DNA from: an uncultured Candidatus Saccharibacteria bacterium
GTDB lineage: Bacteria; Patescibacteriota; CALEFQ01; G965231055
Assembly: GCA_965231055.1 (NCBI GenBank)
Contig: OZ246411.1
Location: 409,875-473,874, forward strand
DNA length: 64,000 bases
Direction: 5' to 3'
Each line of letters begins with the position of its first letter. Position 1 is the stretch's first letter. The position numbers and the translations under genes are program-made. Shown here piece after piece: positions 23,621 through 61,580 of the stretch. Below the pieces are notes generated by a model. That model was not told the DNA's origin. It searched no databases and saw only the letters and a list, made by a program, of their open reading frames with translations.

Positions 23621-23638
23621 CTTCATCTTTGAAAAATT

Positions 23639-23670
23639 GCGGGTCAAGCCTTTGATCCGCATTTTTATTT
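23639..23670 (+). terminator. intrinsic terminator (copy 1 of a duplicated 43-nt terminator module)
   Basis: GCGGGTCAAG cc TTTGATCCGC + ATTTTTATTT; near-identical to 24220-24251. Confidence 0.75.
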
Positions 23671-24199: not shown

Positions 24200-24219
24200 T
24201 CTTTATTTTTCGATTTAAT

Positions 24220-24251
24220 GCGGGTCAAACCTTTGATCCGCATTTTTATTT
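24220..24251 (+). terminator. intrinsic terminator (copy 2 of the duplicated module)
   Basis: GCGGGTCAAA cc TTTGATCCGC + ATTTTTATTT. Confidence 0.75.
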
Positions 24252-30018: not shown

Positions 30019-30348
30019 ATGAGTAGTGATATGAGAAATCGATTGAGAGATTTGTGTGAGCTTATCGCTGAAGTGATAAAACAGGGGCATTTGGATTCAA
30101 ATGATGTGAGGCCCATTGAAAGATTCGAAGGCGCAGTCTCTATTTACGAGCTTGATTTCCCGGACAATCCTAATGGAAAAATCACTTTTTGGGTTAATCC
30201 TAACACGCAAAAAATAATGCAGATCGTTGTTTCTTGGAATGGGGAAACTTTCAAAACAGTGATGAAGTTCCAGGGTGGATCAATTAGGGGTGGAGAATTC
30301 TTTATCGAGCGGGTGAGATTGTCTCATGTCTGCGAAGATTTGTTCTAA
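30019..30348 (+). CDS. hypothetical protein (109 aa)
   Basis: strong SD AGGAGGGAGG; no recognisable motif. Confidence 0.6.
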   Translation: MSSDMRNRLRDLCELIAEVIKQGHLDSNDVRPIERFEGAVSIYELDFPDNPNGKITFWVNPNTQKIMQIVVSWNGETFKTVMKFQGGSIRGGEFFIERVRLSHVCEDLF

Positions 30349-30436: not shown

Positions 30437-33319
30437 ATGAAACTAAACTCTCAACAATTAGAGGCAGCAGAGCGCAAGCGACCTGGGCCCATGCTCATAG
30501 TGGCTGGCGCTGGTACTGGAAAAACTCGTGTGATATGCGAGAGGTTTTCGTTTTTAGTAAAAAATGGATTAGCGAAAGAGCATGAGATTTTGGCGCTTAC
30601 TTTTACGGATAAGGCGGCTGGAGAGATGGAAGAGAGGATAGATGCTGATCTACCTCTTGGACACGACGAACTTAATGTTATGACATTTCATTCTTTTGGA
30701 AAAATGATTTTGGAAGAATTTGCTTTGCAGATGGGATGGAGTCCTAGGTTTAAACTCCTAACTTCTGGAGACCAGTATCTTTTGGTGAGAAAAAATCTTG
30801 ATAAATTCAATCTAAAACTATACAAACCACAAGGAAATCCCTCCAAGTTTTTGGAAGCCATGCTCAAACTTATTTCACGAGCCAAGGATGAAGAGATTGA
30901 TGCGGTTGAGTATTCAAAGTACGCCAAAAAACTTTCAGCAAGAGCGAAGAAAAATAATTTAATAAAAGACGAAGCCAGGCTACGAAAAGAAGAAGCAGAT
31001 TTTTACAATATTTATGAAGAGTTACTTGTAAAAGAGGGAGCTATGGATTTCGGAGACCTTATTATAAAAACTCTTATGCTTTTTAGGGAGCATCCTAGTG
31101 TATTGGAAAAAATCAGAAAAAGATACAAATATGTTTTGGTAGATGAATTTCAGGATACAAATACTGCGCAATACAAACTTGTAAAAATTTTGGCTGAACC
31201 CAAAAACAATATCATGGTGGTGGGGGATGATGATCAGTCACTTTATAGGTGGAGAGGGGCCGCGATATCAAATATTCTCAATTTCAAAAAAGATTATCCC
31301 AAATCTCATAGTGTGGTACTAAATCAAAATTACAGATCTACTGGTGCAATTTTGGATTTGGCTTATAAATCAATTTGCAATAACAATCCAAATAGACTCG
31401 AATGCAAAATAAAAATCAATAAAAAACTAAAGGCGATAAGAAGTGGCGAAAAACCAAGGCTAGTAGAGACACCTAGTTATCTAGACGAAGCTGAATTTGT
31501 GGTTAGCGAAATTCAAAAACTAAACAAAGAAGGCGCTGATCTCAAAGATATGGCCATACTGATTCGCAGCAATAGAATTGCGGAGCCATTTATTTCCGCC
31601 CTTGAAAGAAGTGGAGTTGATTATGATTTTGTTTCTGCGTCAGGGCTTTATAAAGAAAAAATAGTGCGTGATGCATTTGCGTATTTGAGGGCAGTTGCGA
31701 ATCCTGGAGATAATCTAGCTATTTATGCGATGCTGGAAAGCGACATATGGAAAATAGATACACTTGATCTCTATCGAATTTCCAGCTTTGCCAAGCGCAA
31801 AACCAAGGATCTTTTTGAAATTATAGCCAAGCCTAGTTATATAGATGGACTTTCGGATAAATCAAAATCAAAACTCTCAAAAATATTTTCATTTTTGGAA
31901 TCTGATCTCAAAAATTCTGAGAAAAAGGGAGCTGTGGACTTGGTTGTTCGTTATGTTAAAAATTCTGGTTACGATAAAATTTTAAGAGAAAGTGAGACAT
32001 ACGAAGATCGAAAAAGATTTGAAAATTTCAATTTATTTTTTAGGCAAGTGCAGGAATTTGAAATTGGTGGGAGCAATAGAAATGTGAAAGACTTTGTTGC
32101 AGAAATAGATATGGCGCTAGAAAGTGGGATAGACCCAGCGCCAGCAAATCTCACCGAGGATGTTGATTCGGTGAAGCTCACGACAATTCACAAGGCCAAG
32201 GGTCTGGAGTTTTCAGTGGTTTTTGTTGTGGGGTTGGTTGATGGTACTTTTCCTGCGAGAGAGCGCCCTGACACGATTGAGCTCGCATCTGAATTGTCTG
32301 AGCAAGAACTCGCTGAGACGAGCCATGCCGAGGAAGAGAGAAGACTATTCTACGTCGCTACTACTAGAGCCAAGGATAAACTCTATCTTACCTATGCTAT
32401 AGACTATGGTGGAAAAAAAGAGAAGAAGGTTTCTAGATTTATTAAAGAAATTTTGGATCAAGTGATTTTTGAAAAATACAAATCTCAAGATTTACCATGG
32501 GATATAGATACGAAAATTCAAACTAGTGAAGAGATAACTATAAAAAATAAAAAAGCGGAAGAAGTAAAATACAAACTTCCAAATGTTTTTAGTTTCACTC
32601 AGGTTTCAGCTTTTGCGCACTGTCCTTTGCAATACAAGTATGCCCATATTCTTGGACTCAAATCGCTAAAGCGCAGAAATTATGTTTATGGACAAAGTAT
32701 CCACGATGCTTTGAGATACTTTTTTGAAGCAGTAAAAAGCAAGAAAAAATATAGCAAGCGACTACTGCTAGATTTACTCAAAAAACATTGGATTAGTGAA
32801 TGGTATGAATCAAAAGCAGATGAAAAAGAAAGCTTTGAGCGTGCCGAAAATGATCTTGCAGGGTTTTACGAAGAACTAATTTTGGGAAATAAAGAATTTA
32901 CCAAAACTGAGCAACTATTTATAGAAAAAGAGTTCAAATTCAAAATAGGGGAGTTCAATTTTAGAGGCAAAGTTGATAGAGTGCAAAAACTTCCCAATGG
33001 AATTATTGAACTTATTGATTATAAAACTGGTACTTCCAAAAAATCTGAAACCCCCAAAAAGAAATTTGCTCAGCTATTGCTTTATGTGAAAGGAATAAAA
33101 GATGTTTTTGGTATTACTGTGGATCAGGTTACCCTGCAGTATATCGGGGGAGAGTTTGAAAAAGACACTATTAAATTACCATCCAAGCTTCTAAACAAAG
33201 TGCTTTCAGAAAGCGAGCAGACACTATCAAATCTATGTGAAAGCGATTTTCCTCCCAATCCAAGCAAGCACGAATGCAAATACTGTGATTTCAACATTAT
33301 TTGTCCATATAGAAAGTAA
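30437..33319 (+). CDS. UvrD/PcrA-like superfamily 1 helicase fused to a C-terminal RecB-family (Cas4/AddB-like) Fe-S nuclease
   Basis: Walker A VAGAGTGKT, DEFQDTN, helicase motifs; C-terminal IDYKTG (D-ExK) and a four-Cys cluster (CPLQYKY ... CKYCDFNIICPY). Confidence 0.85.
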   Translation: MKLNSQQLEAAERKRPGPMLIVAGAGTGKTRVICERFSFLVKNGLAKEHEILALTFTDKAAGEMEERIDADLPLGHDELNVMTFHSFGKMILEEFALQMGWSPRFKLLTSGDQYLLVRKNLDKFNLKLYKPQGNPSKFLEAMLKLISRAKDEEIDAVEYSKYAKKLSARAKKNNLIKDEARLRKEEADFYNIYEELLVKEGAMDFGDLIIKTLMLFREHPSVLEKIRKRYKYVLVDEFQDTNTAQYKLVKILAEPKNNIMVVGDDDQSLYRWRGAAISNILNFKKDYPKSHSVVLNQNYRSTGAILDLAYKSICNNNPNRLECKIKINKKLKAIRSGEKPRLVETPSYLDEAEFVVSEIQKLNKEGADLKDMAILIRSNRIAEPFISALERSGVDYDFVSASGLYKEKIVRDAFAYLRAVANPGDNLAIYAMLESDIWKIDTLDLYRISSFAKRKTKDLFEIIAKPSYIDGLSDKSKSKLSKIFSFLESDLKNSEKKGAVDLVVRYVKNSGYDKILRESETYEDRKRFENFNLFFRQVQEFEIGGSNRNVKDFVAEIDMALESGIDPAPANLTEDVDSVKLTTIHKAKGLEFSVVFVVGLVDGTFPARERPDTIELASELSEQELAETSHAEEERRLFYVATTRAKDKLYLTYAIDYGGKKEKKVSRFIKEILDQVIFEKYKSQDLPWDIDTKIQTSEEITIKNKKAEEVKYKLPNVFSFTQVSAFAHCPLQYKYAHILGLKSLKRRNYVYGQSIHDALRYFFEAVKSKKKYSKRLLLDLLKKHWISEWYESKADEKESFERAENDLAGFYEELILGNKEFTKTEQLFIEKEFKFKIGEFNFRGKVDRVQKLPNGIIELIDYKTGTSKKSETPKKKFAQLLLYVKGIKDVFGITVDQVTLQYIGGEFEKDTIKLPSKLLNKVLSESEQTLSNLCESDFPPNPSKHECKYCDFNIICPYRK

Positions 33320-39651: not shown

Positions 39652-39867
39652 CTATTGCTTTTGGATTTGCTTTGCTGATTCGGAATTTATTGGGGATATA
39701 ACCATTCCTCTAAATCCAATTCCGAGAATGAGCAGTCCCGATAATAAAGTTACTATGAAGACTGCGGTCTTGGGTTGATTTTCCTTCGAGAAATTTGCCC
39801 TTAGGAAAAGGTAAATCAGGCTTATAAGTGCAATTATTGCGCCAAACAATGCTACCAAATAATACAT
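39652..39867 (-). CDS. small two-TM membrane protein
   Basis: 71 aa; strong SD AAGGAGGT 5 nt upstream of the ATG on the minus strand. Confidence 0.65.
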   Translation of the reverse strand: MYYLVALFGAIIALISLIYLFLRANFSKENQPKTAVFIVTLLSGLLILGIGFRGMVISPINSESAKQIQKQ

Positions 39868-52026: not shown

Positions 52027-52764
52027 ATGATCGGAATAATCGGTGGCTCGGGATTTTACGAGCTATTCAATGAGAAACCAGAAGAAAAAATAATCAAAAC
52101 TCCGTACGGTGAACCCTCGGAGCCAATTATGATCGGAAAGATTTCCGGAAAAGAAGTGGCATTTTTACCTCGCCATGGCAAAGATCATAGATTTCCACCT
52201 CATAATATTCCATACAGAGCGAATATTTATGCCCTAAAGGAATTGGGAGTGAATAAAATTATAAGTTTTAGTTCATGCGGGGCACTTCAAAAAGAATTAA
52301 ATCCCGGCGATTTTGTGATAGTCGATCAATTTATAGATCATACCAAGCGAAGAAAGGATTCTTTTATTGAAGGTCCTGAAGTGGATCATTTGAGTGCTGC
52401 GGAAGTTTACGATAAAGATTTGCGTAGTGCCCTTATTTCTTCGTGTGAAAAAATAAAAATCCCTCATAAAAAAGAGGGGACCGTGGTAGTGATTGAGGGA
52501 CCTAGATTTTCCTCCAAAGCAGAGAGTGCTTACTATTCCAAAATGGGCTGGGATGTTATCAATATGACTCAGTATCCAGAAAATGTTTTGTCAGCAGAGA
52601 AGGGGATTAAGTTTGCTGGAGTTTTGCTTGTGACTGATCACGATGCTGGAGTGCATAGGCATGAGGACATAAAACCAGTTACATGGGATGAAATAAAAAG
52701 AGTTATGAAGAGCAATATTCATCACGCCAAAACCTTGATCGAAGAACTGGTGAGGAGTATTTAA
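52027..52764 (+). CDS. mtnP: 5'-methylthioadenosine / purine nucleoside phosphorylase (PNP-UDP family)
   Basis: MIGIIGGSGFYEL N-terminus, phosphate-binding region, MTAP-like length. Confidence 0.8.
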   Translation: MIGIIGGSGFYELFNEKPEEKIIKTPYGEPSEPIMIGKISGKEVAFLPRHGKDHRFPPHNIPYRANIYALKELGVNKIISFSSCGALQKELNPGDFVIVDQFIDHTKRRKDSFIEGPEVDHLSAAEVYDKDLRSALISSCEKIKIPHKKEGTVVVIEGPRFSSKAESAYYSKMGWDVINMTQYPENVLSAEKGIKFAGVLLVTDHDAGVHRHEDIKPVTWDEIKRVMKSNIHHAKTLIEELVRSI

Positions 52765-52787
52765 TTTCATCCCACATAATATATTAA

Positions 52788-52809
52788 AACGCGATCAAGG
52801 CGTTTTTTT
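52788..52809 (+). terminator. intrinsic terminator after mtnP
   Basis: AACGC gatcaag GCGTT + TTTTTT. Confidence 0.55.
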
Positions 52810-52810
52810 G

Positions 52811-52851
52811 TAATAAAAAAGCCCCGGTTGTTCGCATAAATGCGCCGGGGC
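52811..52851 (-). terminator. intrinsic terminator oriented for a minus-strand transcript (A-run on the plus strand precedes a GC-rich hairpin)
   Basis: plus strand aaaaaa GCCCCGG ttgttcgcataaatgcg CCGGGGC; read on the minus strand this is a hairpin followed by UUUUUUAUU. Confidence 0.5.
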
Positions 52852-54170
52852 ATGTCTTCTTTGTTTAGCGCGTCTCTGGCATGCCATCTTTGCGTTATGT
52901 TGATTAAACGCTATGATATTATGTGAGCGCGCGACACCTTTTGCGGGGTGTTTTTTTGAAACCGAGAGTCAATCTCTTAGAGATTGTTTCTTCAGCACAT
53001 TGGCAGGATCCTCCTATTGCGCTTGGCGGCAGAAACCCGGGAAAACAGTGTCAGTTGTTAGTCGGTGCTCGGATAAAAATCATGGTCATTCCTCGTTTGC
53101 AGGGGGCCAAGGCGCCTCGGCGTTAACAGGCGCTGCTGGCCGACAGGTTGATCGACGACATGAACAATGTCGAAAGGGAGAACTGGGAGCAGTTAAGCAC
53201 CAACATAAAGGGGTCCCTCCTGGCTTTAGCCAAGGTGTTGATTTTGCGGTTCGTTGTGAGCCGCATTTTAATAGAACTATTCAGAATCTAATGTATTTAG
53301 ATTTTTTTGTCAAATATTCTTTTGAATTCATCGCAACAGTATTTTTTTGAATAAAAAAATCCCCGAATGCAGCTGCAGCTACTTTCGGGGGGTAAAGTTG
53401 TGGTTTCAGATTATACAAGTCAAAAAGAAAAGAGCGGGCACCTGCATCGGTAGTCGGGAGTTTTGATGTGTACCTCCCGGAATCCTAGCAGGTAGTTACC
53501 AGTACATGGGAGTATCCTCCTTTTGTTGCCATCTGATGTGGAGAGTCTTTTCTAGAGCATTTGCTCTAGTAGGGCCCTCGTTTGCGTGAGATACATCGGC
53601 GACGCGATCGTCGAATGACAGAATGCGATCCTTTTGCGTAAGCTTCTCCCGTAGAACACACAGGGTTTGGCCGGATTTTTTTGGATTCTGCTATGTTACG
53701 TCCATGTCATTCTGTCCCTCATTTCTTGGTTTTTCGAGGGTTTGGAAGAACTTTTTGCAATAGGCATTCTCCTTTCTTCGAAGTGTAAAAGAGCGAATTT
53801 AAAATGACACTACCACGTATCTATTAAATGTCAAGTATTTTGAGTGAATAATGTGGTATTTTGCTTTATTTTAGCCAAAATATAGTAATTTTGGGTAAAA
53901 GAAAACAGGGAATGTTGGATGCGTGTTTTTGGTGGCTTAGAAAGATGTCTTTGCTCGAGTGAGCTAAGTTTTTCTTGCCCATGGGGTATCCCATGAAAAC
54001 TGCATCAACATGCCCTGTTATGTGTAAAGAATAGAAGGGGACGGGTGATAATACCTTTAGCTAGGCCGATTAAAACATAAAAAAATGAAAAGGCTTTGCT
54101 ATCGGTTTTAAGGCATAGTGTCGTATCCCGTCCCCTCCTTGGTACAATGAACAGTTGGAAAACTATCACC
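52852..54170. other. about 1.3-kb ORF-free, GC-elevated island between convergent mtnP and miaA; candidate structured non-coding RNA gene(s)
   Basis: GC of sampled stretches about 50-57% versus about 35% for the flanks; no ORF of 60 aa or more in any frame from 53350 to 54178; the only long ORF (52913..53350) has non-protein-like composition; multiple hairpins and terminator-like structures on both strands. Confidence 0.6.
53341..53392 (-). terminator. intrinsic terminator for a minus-strand transcript inside the ORF-free island
   Basis: plus strand atttttttgaataaaaaaat CCCCGAA tgcagctgcagctact TTCGGGG; on the minus strand: hairpin then AUUUUUUUAUUCAAAAAAAU. Confidence 0.5.
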
Positions 54171-54177
54171 CGCTTGT

Positions 54178-55074
54178 TTATTTGTCAATTTCTATGAAAT
54201 TTTGAACCTTTTTTTCGATAAATTTTACATCTGGTTTTGTCCAAACCAATTCTTTGTCCTTGCGTAGCCATATGAGCTGCTTTCTTGCAAAATTATGTAT
54301 AGCGAATTTTAGCTTTTCCCTTGCCTCTGGTTCTTTGAGTTCTCCTTGGATAATTTTGGTTATAAAATTATATTCAAGTCCCAAGCTTTTTAGCCAAAGA
54401 GGTGATATATCCTTTGAAATAAGATCAGCAACTTCTTTTTTCATTCCATTCCATCTCACATCAACTCTAGTATCTATTTTTTTGTACAATTCTTCTCGGG
54501 GTAAATCCATGGCGAACTTAAGGGCTTCAAATTTTTGAGGCCCCTTTTTACTTTGGCTATGAAATGATTTACCTGTGATTTTTACTACTTCTATGGCGCG
54601 CTGAAGCTTGCGGGGATTTTTGGTATCAAGATGTTTTAGATCCTCAGGACTTTCTTTTTCCAAAAAAGTGAGCATTTTTTCGCGTGACCAGGTTTCTATT
54701 TCTTTTCTAAGCTTTTGATCAATCTCTATCTCAGGCATCTGATAATTTTCAAGTAGCGTCTTGATGTAAAAATAAGTTCCACCAACTATTATCGGAAGTT
54801 TATTTTTTGATCGTATTATCTCGATTGCGTTTTCAGCTTCACGTTTAAAATCCATCGCAGAAAAATATTCACCAGGATTTTTGATGTCTATTAGGTGATG
54901 GGGGATGTTCTTGGTTTCTTGTTTTGTCACTTTGCCTGATCCTATGTCGAGCCCTTTGTAAACCTGCCTAGAATCTGCGGAAATAATTTCTCCGTTAAAT
55001 TTCAAAGCTAGCTCTATTCCTAGAGATGTTTTTCCTGAAGCTGTGGGACCTAAAATAACTATTACTTTTTGCAT
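54178..55074 (-). CDS. miaA: tRNA dimethylallyltransferase
   Basis: N-terminal P-loop ILGPTASGKTSL and DSRQVYKGLDIGSGK. Confidence 0.9.
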   Translation of the reverse strand: MQKVIVILGPTASGKTSLGIELALKFNGEIISADSRQVYKGLDIGSGKVTKQETKNIPHHLIDIKNPGEYFSAMDFKREAENAIEIIRSKNKLPIIVGGTYFYIKTLLENYQMPEIEIDQKLRKEIETWSREKMLTFLEKESPEDLKHLDTKNPRKLQRAIEVVKITGKSFHSQSKKGPQKFEALKFAMDLPREELYKKIDTRVDVRWNGMKKEVADLISKDISPLWLKSLGLEYNFITKIIQGELKEPEAREKLKFAIHNFARKQLIWLRKDKELVWTKPDVKFIEKKVQNFIEIDK

Positions 55075-59515: not shown

Positions 59516-61249
59516 TTATTTTTTTTCTTTTATTTCTTCTTTTATTTTGTGAATAAAGGTTTCGAGTTTTAAAACCTCCTGCTCTTCTTTTTCTCTGGAG
59601 TTTATCGTGATTGTATTTTCCTGTTTTTCTTTTTCTCCAACGATTAGAATGTATGGAGTTTTTTGCATTTTGGCTTTTCGGATTCTTTTTCCTAAAGACT
59701 CACTTTCATTGCTAATTTCTACTCTGATTTCATTATCTAGCAGCTCTGTGTAAATCTTTTTAGCGTAATCATCGAATTTTTCTGAAACAGGTAGGATAGC
59801 TACTTGAACAGGGGAGAGCCAGACTGGAAAGGCACCTGCAAAATGCTCTATGAGTAGGGCTAAAAATCTTTCGTAGGATCCTAGTATTGCTCGATGAACC
59901 ATGACTGGTGCAATTCTTTCTCCTTTTTCATTGATGTACTCAAGGCCAAACCTTTTTGGTGTTGCAAAATCAATTTGAACTGTTGGGATTTGAATCTCTC
60001 TTCCGGTAGCATCGCGAAACATAAAATCCAATTTTGGACCGTATAGCGCAGCTTCGCCTTCACATCTTTTTGCGTCCAGTTTCATTTCATTTGAGATATC
60101 TTCAAGAATTTTTTCACATTCATCCCAATCCTTGGTTTCTCCTATATATTTTTCTGGATGATCATAGTCACGAACTGAGAGTGAAACCCAATGATTTCCC
60201 CAAAGACCAATGGCAGAATAAAAATCTTTTATAATATTGACCATGTTTCTTATTTCGTCCTTGACTTGCTCAACTGTGCAAAAAGAATGCCCGTCTTCTA
60301 TTGTTATGGCGTAAACTCGTGATAATCCTCCGACTTCGCCAGTTTTTTCGGCTCGATATTGTTTATCTGATTCCATGTATCTTATTGGTAGATCTTTGTA
60401 TGATCTCATTTGTGAGGCATAGATCTGTGTGTGGTGGGGGCATTGAACTGGTTTTAGTACAAAGTCGTGTTTTTTTTCTGATGTGACATGGAAGAGCTCA
60501 TCGCCAAATTTTTTGGCATGTCCCGAAGTTTCAAAAAGCTCCTCTTTTGCCAATGATGGCGCGGAAACTTTTTGAAAACCGTATTTTCTGCAAACACCTT
60601 CAATGTGTTTTTGTAGCTCTTCTTTGATTACTGTTCCTTTTGGAGTGTAAAGTGGTAGACCTGGTCCAACTAAATCTGAAAAACAAAATAAATCAAGGTC
60701 TTTACCAATTTTTCGATGATCTCTTTTTGATGCTTCTTCGATCATTTTCAGATAAGTAGCGAGCTCTTTTTTATTTTCAAAAGCCGTGCCGTAAATGCGC
60801 TGGAGCATCTTGTTTTTTTCGTCTCCTCTCCAGTATGCACCTGCTATTGAAAGCAATTTGAAACTTTTTATTTCCCTTGTTGAGTCTATGTGTGGTCCCG
60901 TGCATAGATCAACGAAATTTCCAGTTTTATAGATGCTTACTTTATCGTCTTTTATCTCTTCTAGCAGCTCAACCTTGTATGGCTGTTTAGCTTTTTTGAA
61001 AAGTTCAATAGCTTCTTTTCTGTCCATTTGAGCTTGCTCAAAGGGCAAATTCTTTTTTATGATTTCCTGCATTTTTTCTTCAATGATTTTTAGATCTTCG
61101 GGAATCAGGGTTCTTGGCAAATCAAAATCATAGTAAAATCCCTCATCGGTTGATGGGCCTATTGCAAATTTGGCATCTGGAAACATTTCAAACACGGCTG
61201 ATGCAAGCACGTGAGATGTCGAATGTCTTAGGGTTGATAGATTTTTCAT
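59516..61249 (-). CDS. thrS: threonine--tRNA ligase (catalytic plus anticodon-binding domains; short N-terminus)
   Basis: second additional domain (TLRHSTSHVLA), class II motifs (HRAILGSYERF), C-terminal anticodon-binding domain. Confidence 0.9.
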   Translation of the reverse strand: MKNLSTLRHSTSHVLASAVFEMFPDAKFAIGPSTDEGFYYDFDLPRTLIPEDLKIIEEKMQEIIKKNLPFEQAQMDRKEAIELFKKAKQPYKVELLEEIKDDKVSIYKTGNFVDLCTGPHIDSTREIKSFKLLSIAGAYWRGDEKNKMLQRIYGTAFENKKELATYLKMIEEASKRDHRKIGKDLDLFCFSDLVGPGLPLYTPKGTVIKEELQKHIEGVCRKYGFQKVSAPSLAKEELFETSGHAKKFGDELFHVTSEKKHDFVLKPVQCPHHTQIYASQMRSYKDLPIRYMESDKQYRAEKTGEVGGLSRVYAITIEDGHSFCTVEQVKDEIRNMVNIIKDFYSAIGLWGNHWVSLSVRDYDHPEKYIGETKDWDECEKILEDISNEMKLDAKRCEGEAALYGPKLDFMFRDATGREIQIPTVQIDFATPKRFGLEYINEKGERIAPVMVHRAILGSYERFLALLIEHFAGAFPVWLSPVQVAILPVSEKFDDYAKKIYTELLDNEIRVEISNESESLGKRIRKAKMQKTPYILIVGEKEKQENTITINSREKEEQEVLKLETFIHKIKEEIKEKK

Positions 61250-61580
61250 GGTTTAAATTAAGTTATAAGTATTCGCGAATAAATAAAAAATTCTCGCTCC
61301 AAAGTTAAACTTTTTTAACATTGGAACGAGAATTCTATCTCGCGGTTCCATCCAATTTCTCACCACTCTGAGATTTAGTGATAAGCTTCTTTATTTATTG
61401 CAATTGCTCCGCGGGTGGTATGAAATAGGGGATTGTCGCAAAAGCTTTCAGTCTCGGCTCTTGCTCCCTTTGACAATTCATCCTTGTTTCACTTGTCCCA
61501 CTGACACGTTGTTAGCTTAGCATAATGCTAAAAGTTTTTCAATACAGTATTTGGTAATTAAAAAAGAAATAGAAGAATAC
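61250..61580 (-). promoter_or_regulatory. T-box-like riboswitch leader of thrS (T-box motif plus terminator/antiterminator)
   Basis: on the minus strand: AAATTGGATGGAACCGCGAG (plus 61339-61357) matches the T-box consensus AAUUAGGGUGGNACCGCGG with a UGGA bulge; mutually exclusive antiterminator (GGAAC/GTTCC + CGAGA/TCTCG) and a 19-bp terminator hairpin (plus 61289-61334) followed by UUUUUUAUUU about 30 nt before the thrS ATG; candidate Thr specifier ACC in cauACCAcc. Confidence 0.65.

Follow-up and report, generated by a model that had tools for sequence, protein, structure and literature searches.

In our tentative judgment, the interval between the convergent genes mtnP and miaA is best explained as an island particular to this lineage and arranged for minus-strand transcription, in which a structured 3′ extension of miaA is followed by two terminator-bounded units of ~450 nt that are probably eroded small genes. 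On the minus strand, miaA runs into a structured segment, S1 (~340 nt), and then into units S2 and S3, which stand behind TTGACA-type sites and end at the strong terminators T_B and T_A, respectively, both of the host type. The host has a small genome (~0.84 Mb) and is a Paceibacteria-like member of the Patescibacteria. Genomes of this group are tightly packed, and a gene-free 1.4 kb is unusual among them and a place that could conceal a hitherto undescribed RNA. The interval and its neighbors are as follows.

52027-52764, plus strand: mtnP, with a PNP_UDP_1 domain
52765..54177, no strand assigned: intergenic island of 1413 nt between convergent mtnP and miaA
54178-55074, minus strand: miaA, with an IPPT domain

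The island is the sole long stretch without a credible ORF in the window (the whole 64-kb stretch of DNA analysed here), as a sequence-only reading had proposed; the other gaps, of 450-530 nt, each contain small genes. The same reading was right that the GC content is markedly raised (43.2% vs 37.3% for the window), and the 300-nt GC maximum of the window (52.7%) lies inside the island at 52926-53225, the tRNA cluster being lower at 50%. It had gone on to take the high GC as a sign of structured RNA, and this step fails: 150-nt windows across 52900-53150 fold with z of only -0.3 to +1.7, while the structured segment at 53840-54177 has a GC content of only 39%. The GC peak and the structure signal occupy different places, and a high GC content does not go together with RNA structure in this island. 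The plus strand of the region is T-rich (AT skew), and restriction-type palindromes are not in excess (22 seen vs 22.5 expected). An origin of replication was rejected, no DnaA box being found within the island, as was a replication terminus: the GC skew keeps its sign past the island and dif-like words occur only at chance level.

The layout is drawn from the following termination and promoter-like signals.

52786..52812, plus strand: mtnP intrinsic terminator, a 7-bp hairpin then U7 (-10.3 kcal/mol, z -3.65)
52820..52852, minus strand: T_A, a strong intrinsic terminator, GCCCCGG...CCGGGGC stem then UUUUUUAUU (-19 kcal/mol, z -4.0)
53245..53265, plus strand: weak terminator-like hairpin then UUUUAAU (-12.8 kcal/mol, z -3.6)
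53285..53313, minus strand: promoter-like TTGACA-17-TAGATT, with 10/12 consensus matches, ~40 nt downstream of T_B
53353..53392, minus strand: T_B, a strong intrinsic terminator, 15-bp stem then U7 (-22.1 kcal/mol, z -5.25)
53832-53805, minus strand: promoter-like TTGACA-16-TAGTGT, found by eye, ahead of unit S2

The minus-facing terminators that had been proposed at 52821-52851 and 53341-53392 were both recovered, as T_A and T_B, and each has the GC-rich hairpin and immediate U-run on the transcribed strand that define an intrinsic terminator. The U-tract of T_A is U6AUU, and T_A stands back-to-back with the mtnP terminator. A plus-facing terminator-like hairpin that had been suggested at 52931-52958 proved to be of chance-level stability (-8.3 kcal/mol, z +0.4). 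Terminator-like sites are enriched in the region (8 per 2 kb vs 2.2 +/- 1.7 in shuffles), and the flank of T_B is similar to that of T_A (alignment score 31 vs a null maximum of 26-27). Promoter-like sites are not enriched (2 found, 4.7 expected), and the site at 53285..53313 may therefore serve as a lead only.

The segments bounded by these signals, and the hairpins of the first of them, are given below.

53840..54177, minus strand: S1, directly following the miaA stop codon, with three long hairpins
54033..54139, minus strand: hairpin H1 of S1, 107 nt, with a 13-bp closing stem AGGAGGGGACGGG : CCCGUCCCCUUCU (z -4.0)
53904..54019, minus strand: hairpin H2 of S1, 116 nt, a three-way junction (-44.2 kcal/mol, z -6.6) then UUUUCUUUU
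53862..53907, minus strand: hairpin H3 of S1 (z -6.0), its 5′ arm overlapping the U-tract behind H2
53350..53798, minus strand: S2, a putative ~445-nt transcript ending at T_B, 45.7% GC
52815..53278, minus strand: S3, a putative ~460-nt transcript from promoter-like site to T_A, including the GC-rich core, 49.6% GC

S1 is the sole statistically exceptional element of the island. Its minimum free energy is -97.2 kcal/mol, with a z of -7.5 for the minus strand as against -4.7 for the plus strand, and its best 150-nt stretch (z -6.5) lies below all 416 background windows, whose minimum was -5.2. The long-range helix that the sequence-only reading placed at 54038-54053/54125-54143 is present as 54033-54045 / 54127-54139 (13 nt, 92% complementary) and closes H1; the CGACG-cgat-CGTCG hairpin reported near ~53600 is present as well. 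By inspection, an A.C mismatch in the H1 stem on the plus strand reads as G.U on the minus strand, and the same is seen in the H3 stem, while counts of G.U pairs vs A.C mismatches, used for the strand call, did not clearly favor either strand. H2 with its downstream U-tract is a possible terminator of miaA. The hairpins have arbitrary loops, among which neither GNRA nor UNCG tetraloops occur.

S2 and S3 show a moderate version of the same bias, and in each of the three segments the minus strand gives the better fold: S2 has a z of -3.25 on the minus strand vs -0.8 on the plus strand, and S3 has -4.06 with its terminator and -2.8 without it on the minus strand, against -1.2 on the plus strand. 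Of the earlier proposal of at least two independently terminated non-coding units, the terminator-bounded minus-strand stretches without a credible gene survive, together with a segment (53840-54177) folding far beyond chance, and what falls is their identity as housekeeping or large known RNAs.

Shine-Dalgarno and ATG signals also lie on the minus strand of the island, at the following positions.

53123..53206, minus strand: 27-codon ORF MLVLNCSQFSLSTLFMSSINLSASSAC, AGGAGG 9 nt ahead of ATG
52992..53021, minus strand: two-codon mini-ORF ATG-TGC-TGA, AGGAGG then a 9-nt spacer
53496..53527, minus strand: mini-ORF ATG-TAC-TGG-TAA, AAGGAGG then an 8-nt spacer

Four of the eight minus-strand copies of AGGAGG in the window fall inside the 1.4-kb island, and three of these four stand 8-9 nt ahead of an ATG, opening ORFs of just 2, 3, and 27 codons; three intergenic copies noted elsewhere in the window are all ahead of real gene starts. 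The 27-codon ORF does not have a protein-like amino-acid composition. The MYW* mini-ORF at 53496..53527 is in frame with, and closes, a start-less open frame of 64 codons (53499-53690), for which a weak PHROG match (E 0.012) was insignificant after multiple testing. The box at 52992..53021 belongs to a 46-nt block that matches the one at 53496-53527 with ~78% identity, a similarity that is borderline. A tandem duplication giving rise to S2 and S3 was considered and rejected, only two short collinear blocks being alike (the terminator flank significantly, the 46-nt box borderline) and the global alignment not being significant. The resemblance of 53300-53355 to the 3′ end of miaA, considered as a possible relic copy, was likewise not significant (p 0.13).

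The island is most likely lineage-specific, judging from the sequence comparisons, and the nearest relatives have other DNA at the site. The closest miaA in a search of 5.8 billion proteins (64% identity) comes from a contig of 1.9 kb, where another GC-rich orphan ORF, unrelated to the island, follows it, and a congeneric mtnP found through its 90% cluster (82% nucleotide identity) lies on a 961-bp contig that retains 42 nt of unrelated flank. A scan of genome contigs with miaA returned relatives of at most 44% identity, which have no island and in which miaA abuts the next gene; a metagenome search with mtnP returned relatives of at most 55% identity only. Nothing was found by nhmmer of the island against 604 kb of related loci, by blastn against phages and plasmids, or by tblastn against phages. 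A hairpin-stem pattern search of IMG/VR gave 18 chance matches in GC-rich contigs, none of them related by nhmmer.

Putting these observations together, we suggest that S2 and S3 would be what erosion has left of small genes, which the lineage either acquired or is in the process of losing, and that the hairpins and terminators would be the parts still working. S1 would serve the miaA mRNA as its 3′ end, and T_A and T_B would halt minus-strand read-through into the convergent mtnP; RNAs from S2 and S3, if any, may be by-products or evolutionarily young small RNAs. Decayed foreign DNA, the fallback of the sequence-only reading, stays a live explanation. A frameshifted remnant of a known protein family, which that reading regarded as the mark of a pseudogene, was not found: searches of all six frames of the island against Pfam, NCBIfam, and PHROGs gave nothing significant. 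The term "eroded gene" accordingly denotes a likeness of signals rather than homology, which counts against erosion. A streamlined genome could also be expected to have shed 1.4 kb of useless DNA, and T_A, T_B, and the hairpins of S1 are undamaged and far from random, so that function fits them as well as decay does. In addition, the likeness of the mini-ORF boxes hints at a conserved element rather than at independent nonsense mutations.

The main rival is therefore that the same layout encodes functional young RNAs specific to the lineage, which we consider possible but less probable: S1 would be a structured RNA (~340 nt) or a regulatory 3′ UTR of miaA, and S2 and S3 would be minus-strand sRNAs of ~450 nt, whose Shine-Dalgarno/mini-ORF boxes may give them a dual function or let them bind ribosomes. 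The folding of S1, which includes the 150 nt with the strongest structure in the window, argues for it, as do the individual significance of H1, H2, and H3, the two plus-strand A.C mismatches that read as G.U on the minus strand, and the promoter-like site, strong terminator, and moderate minus-strand z of each of S2 and S3. The GC content matches the level of the tRNA cluster, and that a genome of 0.84 Mb has kept these 1.4 kb points to selection. Against these stand the lack of any Rfam match, a GC-rich core with no local excess of structure, the arbitrary loops, and the indecisive G.U and A.C counts. Moreover, the sequence is unconserved even in the relative with 64% miaA identity, so that the pairings are predicted from this one sequence. 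It is an unlikely extension of this rival that S1, as a single-copy three-hairpin RNA fused to the miaA 3′ end, and perhaps also the two ~450-nt units with their conserved AGGAGGAT-N7-8-ATGTRCTG mini-ORF box, are founding examples of a class of structured or ribosome-engaging regulatory RNAs that is specific to Patescibacteria and was kept here despite heavy genome reduction.

The island had been described as free of ORFs; this is correct as regards credible genes, but a 145-aa ORF was overlooked, an orphan whose coding statistics are not those of the host. The plus-strand frames considered are these.

52913..53350, plus strand: 145-aa orphan ORF spanning the GC-rich core
53148..53291, plus strand: 43-47-aa ORF, hydrophobic at its C-terminus and antisense to S3; no other frame of the island is as protein-like
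53667-53807, plus strand: 46-aa ORF, a candidate short hydrophobic peptide

Host-like codon usage is absent from every frame of the island. The period-3 signal is weak, confined to 53000-53400 (p 0.004-0.009), and mostly in the phase of the 145-aa ORF. The short ORFs raise the question of small-protein or type I toxin-antitoxin-like cassettes, in which a short hydrophobic peptide (the 43-47-aa or 46-aa peptide on the plus strand, or the 27-aa peptide on the minus strand) would lie under an overlapping antisense transcript, and we consider this quite improbable. It draws on convergent, overlapping transcription signals on both strands around 53123-53313, on the strong Shine-Dalgarno and ATG sites, and on the 43-47-aa frame (53127-53288), which has a hydrophobic C-terminal helix, scores best under a generic 53%-GC codon model (0.105), and has an amino-acid log-likelihood ratio of 0.095, which places it among the highest 1% of spurious ORFs. 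However, no candidate peptide has a homologue, the 43-47-aa ORF included, and the plus-strand ORFs, again including this one, have no Shine-Dalgarno site and no promoter. A T-rich plus strand yields hydrophobic ORFs by chance, a hairpin and U-tract stand 24 nt ahead of the stop codon of the 47-aa ORF, and the peptides are not common to both units.

Were the 145-aa ORF a real orphan gene, the true non-coding part of the island would shrink to only ~0.9 kb, and to this we also assign little likelihood. A 148-codon ORF is somewhat unlikely to arise by chance (~0.1-0.15 by our own estimate), this one is called by gene callers, and its GC content by codon position (0.53 / 0.48 / 0.35), G-rich at the first and T-rich at the third, resembles that of host genes; the period-3 chi-square p is 0.004-0.03. 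Its first 50 codons, however, are without periodicity, its 3′ end is made of the minus-strand promoter-like site and the T_B U-run, and cysteine accounts for 5.5% of its residues. Searches of 1.84 billion representative proteins and of 5.8 billion clusters matched it only to itself, and a viral scan was negative. The codon log-likelihood ratio is -0.119, vs 0.228 +/- 0.09 in real genes, both the codon and the amino-acid ratios lie inside the spurious range, and AlphaFold gave an unconfident fold (mean pLDDT 39). It is probably not a functional gene.

Palindromic mobile elements provide another source of strong hairpins. A size of 107-116 bp is typical of MITE, ERIC, RUP, and REP-like elements, and both H1 (107 bp) and H2 (116 bp) form imperfect palindromes, which have terminal arms of 13-14 bp and lie in a segment folding significantly on both strands. 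That the S1 hairpins are DNA-level elements of this kind inserted behind miaA is nevertheless very improbable, as no second copy occurs in ~71 kb (the 64-kb window plus 7 kb beyond), H1 bears no relation to H2, a target-site duplication could not be seen, and nothing similar was found in related loci.

The identification of the island with a divergent housekeeping or large known RNA (RNase P RNA, 6S RNA, tmRNA, SRP RNA, a group I intron-split tRNA, or OLE/GOLLD/ROOL/HEARO), suggested by its fitting size range and GC content and by RNase-P-like short words, is effectively refuted. The region 52600-54400 was scanned on both strands against the 4227 families of Rfam 15, at gathering scores and permissively at E<=10, and no family matched the island on either strand; this applies to RNase P RNA (bacterial A/B and archaeal), 6S RNA, SRP RNA, OLE/GOLLD/ROOL/HEARO, and group I and II introns alike. 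Elsewhere in the window, the same permissive scan did recover a divergent T-box (RF00230) upstream of thrS (61319-61513, 40.6 bits, E 1e-7), which shows that the method reaches this lineage. The words quoted for an RNase P RNA at 53020-53260 on the plus strand do occur, but no model matches there and no excess structure accompanies them (z -1.2 for 52960-53275 on the plus strand, and about 0 for the 150-nt windows over 52900-53150 given above); the P4 partner had not been located in the sequence-only reading either. ARAGORN found no tmRNA in the window or, at relaxed thresholds, in 52500-54500, and Rfam found none. Some group I introns of Patescibacteria are reported to escape both RF00028 and ARAGORN (PMC13011429). 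RF00028 gave no match here, and ARAGORN -i was empty at the default and 90% thresholds; at 80% it made two calls only, both extending into the miaA coding sequence, and there are no credible tRNA halves.

With the RNase P, 6S, and tmRNA reading removed and the exceptional structure narrowed to 340 nt behind miaA, the locus offers two prospects. Should S1 or the mini-ORF units prove to be transcribed, and to be conserved among sister species, a group for which very few regulatory RNAs are known would gain new ones specific to this lineage. Otherwise, the locus exemplifies a variable site behind miaA at which genes are still being eroded or acquired.

Compared with known systems, the island shares with bacterial RNase P RNA only the length range, the raised GC, and short words (GAAAGGG, GUUAAGCACC), and differs in that no covariance model matches it, a P4 pairing is missing, and the proposed region shows no more folding than expected. 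The T-box leader upstream of thrS is a structured cis-RNA of the same genome, but the island carries no T-box signal and has no downstream gene to regulate. The LDR repeats of Escherichia coli (ldr/rdl) are type I toxin-antitoxin repeats with units of ~530 bp, and they remind us of the two adjacent ~0.5-kb intergenic units, short hydrophobic ORFs, and overlapping opposite-strand signals seen here; there is no homology, however, and the island units align only in two short blocks and do not share their candidate peptides. Orphan intergenic sRNA loci and structured 3′ UTRs come closer, the island being gene-free, with a promoter-like site, hairpin and U-run terminators, and a structured tail behind a gene, but it is unconserved and has no identifiable target, and its putative units are long (~450 nt) with strong Shine-Dalgarno/ATG sites opening ORFs of 2-27 codons. 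Pseudogenes and horizontally acquired remnants in reduced genomes differ from the island, which shows no six-frame protein similarity and whose terminators and hairpins are undegraded; they resemble it in its non-host composition, its Shine-Dalgarno/ATG sites that lead into no ORF, its residual period-3 signal, and its restriction to this lineage.

The island between mtnP and miaA is real and mildly unusual. The window has 37.3% GC and is dense in genes, nearly all of them on the plus strand in the first 52.7 kb, and the 1413-nt interval in which these two genes converge (52765-54177) is its sole long gene-free stretch, as the sequence-only reading had proposed; the other gaps of 450-530 nt are occupied by a 109-aa gene, a 71-aa membrane protein gene, and a SecE-like gene. 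The raised GC was also confirmed (43.2% overall), and 52926-53225 has the highest 300-nt GC of the window (52.7%; the tRNA cluster has 50%). The description of the island as ORF-free is not strictly correct: a plus-strand ORF, ORF145, is present.

Features of the island and its flanking genes (z, fold score)
52027-52764, plus strand: mtnP, convergent with miaA
52815-53278, minus strand: S3, putative ~450-nt transcript ending at T_A; z -4.06, or -2.8 without the terminator
52820-52852, minus strand: T_A, intrinsic terminator; -19 kcal/mol, z -4.0, then a U-run
52900-53150, both strands: GC-rich core; z -0.3 to +1.7 in 150-nt windows
52913-53350, plus strand: ORF145, 145 aa
52960-53275, plus strand: segment including the proposed RNase P region; z -1.2
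53350-53798: S2, putative ~450-nt minus-strand transcript ending at T_B; z -3.25 (minus), -0.8 (plus)
53353-53392, minus strand: T_B, intrinsic terminator; -22.1 kcal/mol, z -5.25, then a U-run
53840-54177: S1, structured segment, 39% GC; z -7.5 (minus), -4.7 (plus)
53862-53907, minus strand: hairpin H3; z -6.0
53904-54019, minus strand: hairpin H2, a three-way junction, then UUUUCUUUU; z -6.6
54033-54139, minus strand: hairpin H1; z -4.0
54178-55074, minus strand: miaA, convergent with mtnP

Structure was scanned with sliding 150-nt folds, scored as z against dinucleotide shuffles. Because the minimum among 416 background windows elsewhere was only -5.2 (mean -0.2, sd 1.25), the z of -6.5 for a 150-nt fold of S1 is the most extreme of the window. 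S1 lies directly 3' of the miaA stop codon and comprises three hairpins in a row, with a U-tract behind H2; it is the part of the locus worth following. The long-range helix noticed earlier was found here (54033-54045/54127-54139), as was a short hairpin at about 53600. High GC had been taken as the signature of structured RNA; GC content and structure are decoupled in the island, as the scores of the GC-rich core and of S1 demonstrate, which undercuts the main argument of that reading. Of the two strands, the minus is the likelier sense strand throughout, in agreement with the terminator orientation. Tallies of G.U pairs and of A.C mismatches were not decisive for either strand.

Both minus-facing terminators claimed previously (52821-52851 and 53341-53392) proved real and strong and look like those at other gene ends of the same genome. 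The plus-facing one (52931-52958) is at chance level (z +0.4). Terminator-like sites number 8 per 2 kb versus 2.2 +/- 1.7 in shuffles, and the flanks of T_A and T_B are alike in sequence. The minus-strand order is miaA, S1, a promoter-like TTGACA site, S2, T_B, a promoter-like TTGACA-17-TAGATT site, S3, and T_A, which stands back-to-back with the mtnP terminator. These signals form a coherent layout for minus-strand transcription. Elsewhere, near-identical plus-strand terminator hairpins (TGCGGGTCAAxCCTTTGATCCGCA and a U-run) are located ~580 nt apart behind neighbouring short genes (23638-23661 and 24217-24244).

The source of the window is a Patescibacteria (CPR) genome; the best miaA relatives in the genome collection are Paceibacteria/Nomurabacteria MAGs with only 40-44% identity, and the same miaA is also present on Logan assemblies. 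The island is lineage-specific. In more distant Paceibacteria the next gene abuts miaA, and on a 1.9-kb Logan contig (SRR17165179) with the closest known miaA (64% identity), miaA is followed at 1114-1797 by an unrelated, acidic orphan ORF of 227 aa that matches no family (54% GC versus 45.5% for that miaA). In this lineage the post-miaA site seems to be variable or prone to insertion. A congeneric mtnP (Logan SRR22840797; 82% nucleotide identity) matches the window on neither flank, and therefore local synteny is unconserved even within the genus; the 181 nt upstream of it are not apt, and each of the three forward frames is closed by stop codons. The closest match in JGI metagenomes was 55%. 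Searches of all fetched loci, phages, plasmids, and IMG/VR by nhmmer and blastn found nothing.

Several other readings were excluded: an origin of replication (no DnaA boxes in the island), a replication terminus (GC skew without inversion), and a duplicated miaA 3' end (p 0.13). Palindromic restriction sites were not in excess either.

In most host genes the leader is AT-rich and has no Shine-Dalgarno sequence; a very strong AGGAGG occurs in a minority, mostly short (109 aa, 30019-30348; the 71-aa membrane protein, 39652-39867; two near 22.8-23.8 kb), and the three intergenic AGGAGG recorded elsewhere in the window (22829, 30003, 39881) all lie upstream of genuine gene starts. The minus strand of the window has eight AGGAGG. 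Four are inside the island, and three of these four have an ATG 8-9 nt downstream, opening the mini-ORFs MC* (in S3) and MYW* (in S2, the tail of a 64-codon open frame without a start codon) and a Ser-rich ORF of 27 codons. Over 46 nt the MC* box resembles that of MYW*, but S2 and S3 gave no global alignment. Such features are as expected for eroded small genes or for mini-ORF-bearing RNAs.

The terminators, hairpins, and Shine-Dalgarno/ATG sites are established, as are the lack of any known family and the island's absence from relatives. We tentatively favor a joint reading in which S2 and S3 would be what is left of small genes, probably acquired ones, and S1, T_A, and T_B would now chiefly terminate and insulate convergent transcription. 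Functional young ncRNAs are possible but less probable; the minus-strand folding and promoter-like sites of S2 and S3 fit them. Small-peptide or type-I-TA-like cassettes, suggested by the AGGAGG-ATG sites, are unlikely. It is just as doubtful that ORF145 is a real orphan gene. Six-frame translations of the island had no match in Pfam, NCBIfam, or PHROGs. A local period-3 signal (53000-53400; chi-square p 0.004-0.009, uncorrected) is comparable in strength to that of real small genes, and two overlapping plus-strand frames could carry it: ORF145 (first codon positions G-rich, third T-rich) and 53127-53288, the frame that most resembles protein both in amino-acid composition and under a generic 53%-GC codon model. 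Searches of 1.84 billion representatives and of 5.8 billion clusters gave no match for ORF145 apart from itself. Its codon log-likelihood ratio of -0.119 compares with 0.228 +/- 0.09 for real genes and -0.153 for spurious ORFs, and its AlphaFold mean pLDDT is 39. Palindromic mobile elements are very improbable, with no second island copy within the window or 7 kb beyond.

A housekeeping RNA (RNase P, 6S, tmRNA) or large ncRNA had been proposed from size and loose motif resemblance; this housekeeping-RNA interpretation is wrong, and a hidden one is scarcely conceivable. With the full set of 4227 Rfam 15 families, cmscan reported three tRNAs and nothing else in the whole window at gathering scores, and 52600-54400 had no credible match on either strand at E<=10, the list being hairpin-caused miRNA-type noise. 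ARAGORN found no tmRNA, and it was also run with introns allowed because group I introns within Patescibacteria tRNA genes reportedly escape standard tools (PMC13011429); nothing appeared at default or 90% thresholds, and two calls at 80% were rejected as extending into the miaA coding sequence. RNase P, 6S, tmRNA, SRP RNA, introns, and large ncRNA families are therefore unsupported. The permissive scan also listed a microRNA-like hairpin (E 0.0086) at a 14-nt inverted repeat (52684-52697/52762-52776; perfect 11-bp core GGGATGAAAT/ATTTCATCCC) flanking the final ~80 nt and stop codon of mtnP. Rfam further gave a weak match to n00280, 'C. difficile sRNA included into helicase gene' (32306-32403, plus strand; 37.9 bits, E 0.015), within a 960-aa helicase-like gene, which is probably conserved helicase coding sequence and not RNA. 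As a positive control, the permissive scan recovered a divergent T-box leader (61319-61513, minus strand) in the 331-nt gap (fold z -4.9) upstream of thrS (59516-61249, minus strand). It scored 40.6 bits against the Rfam gathering score of 93, spans the full model (positions 1-219; E 1.3e-7 locally, 1.5e-5 window-wide), and probably represents a genuine thrS T-box that is unannotated in this Patescibacteria genome.
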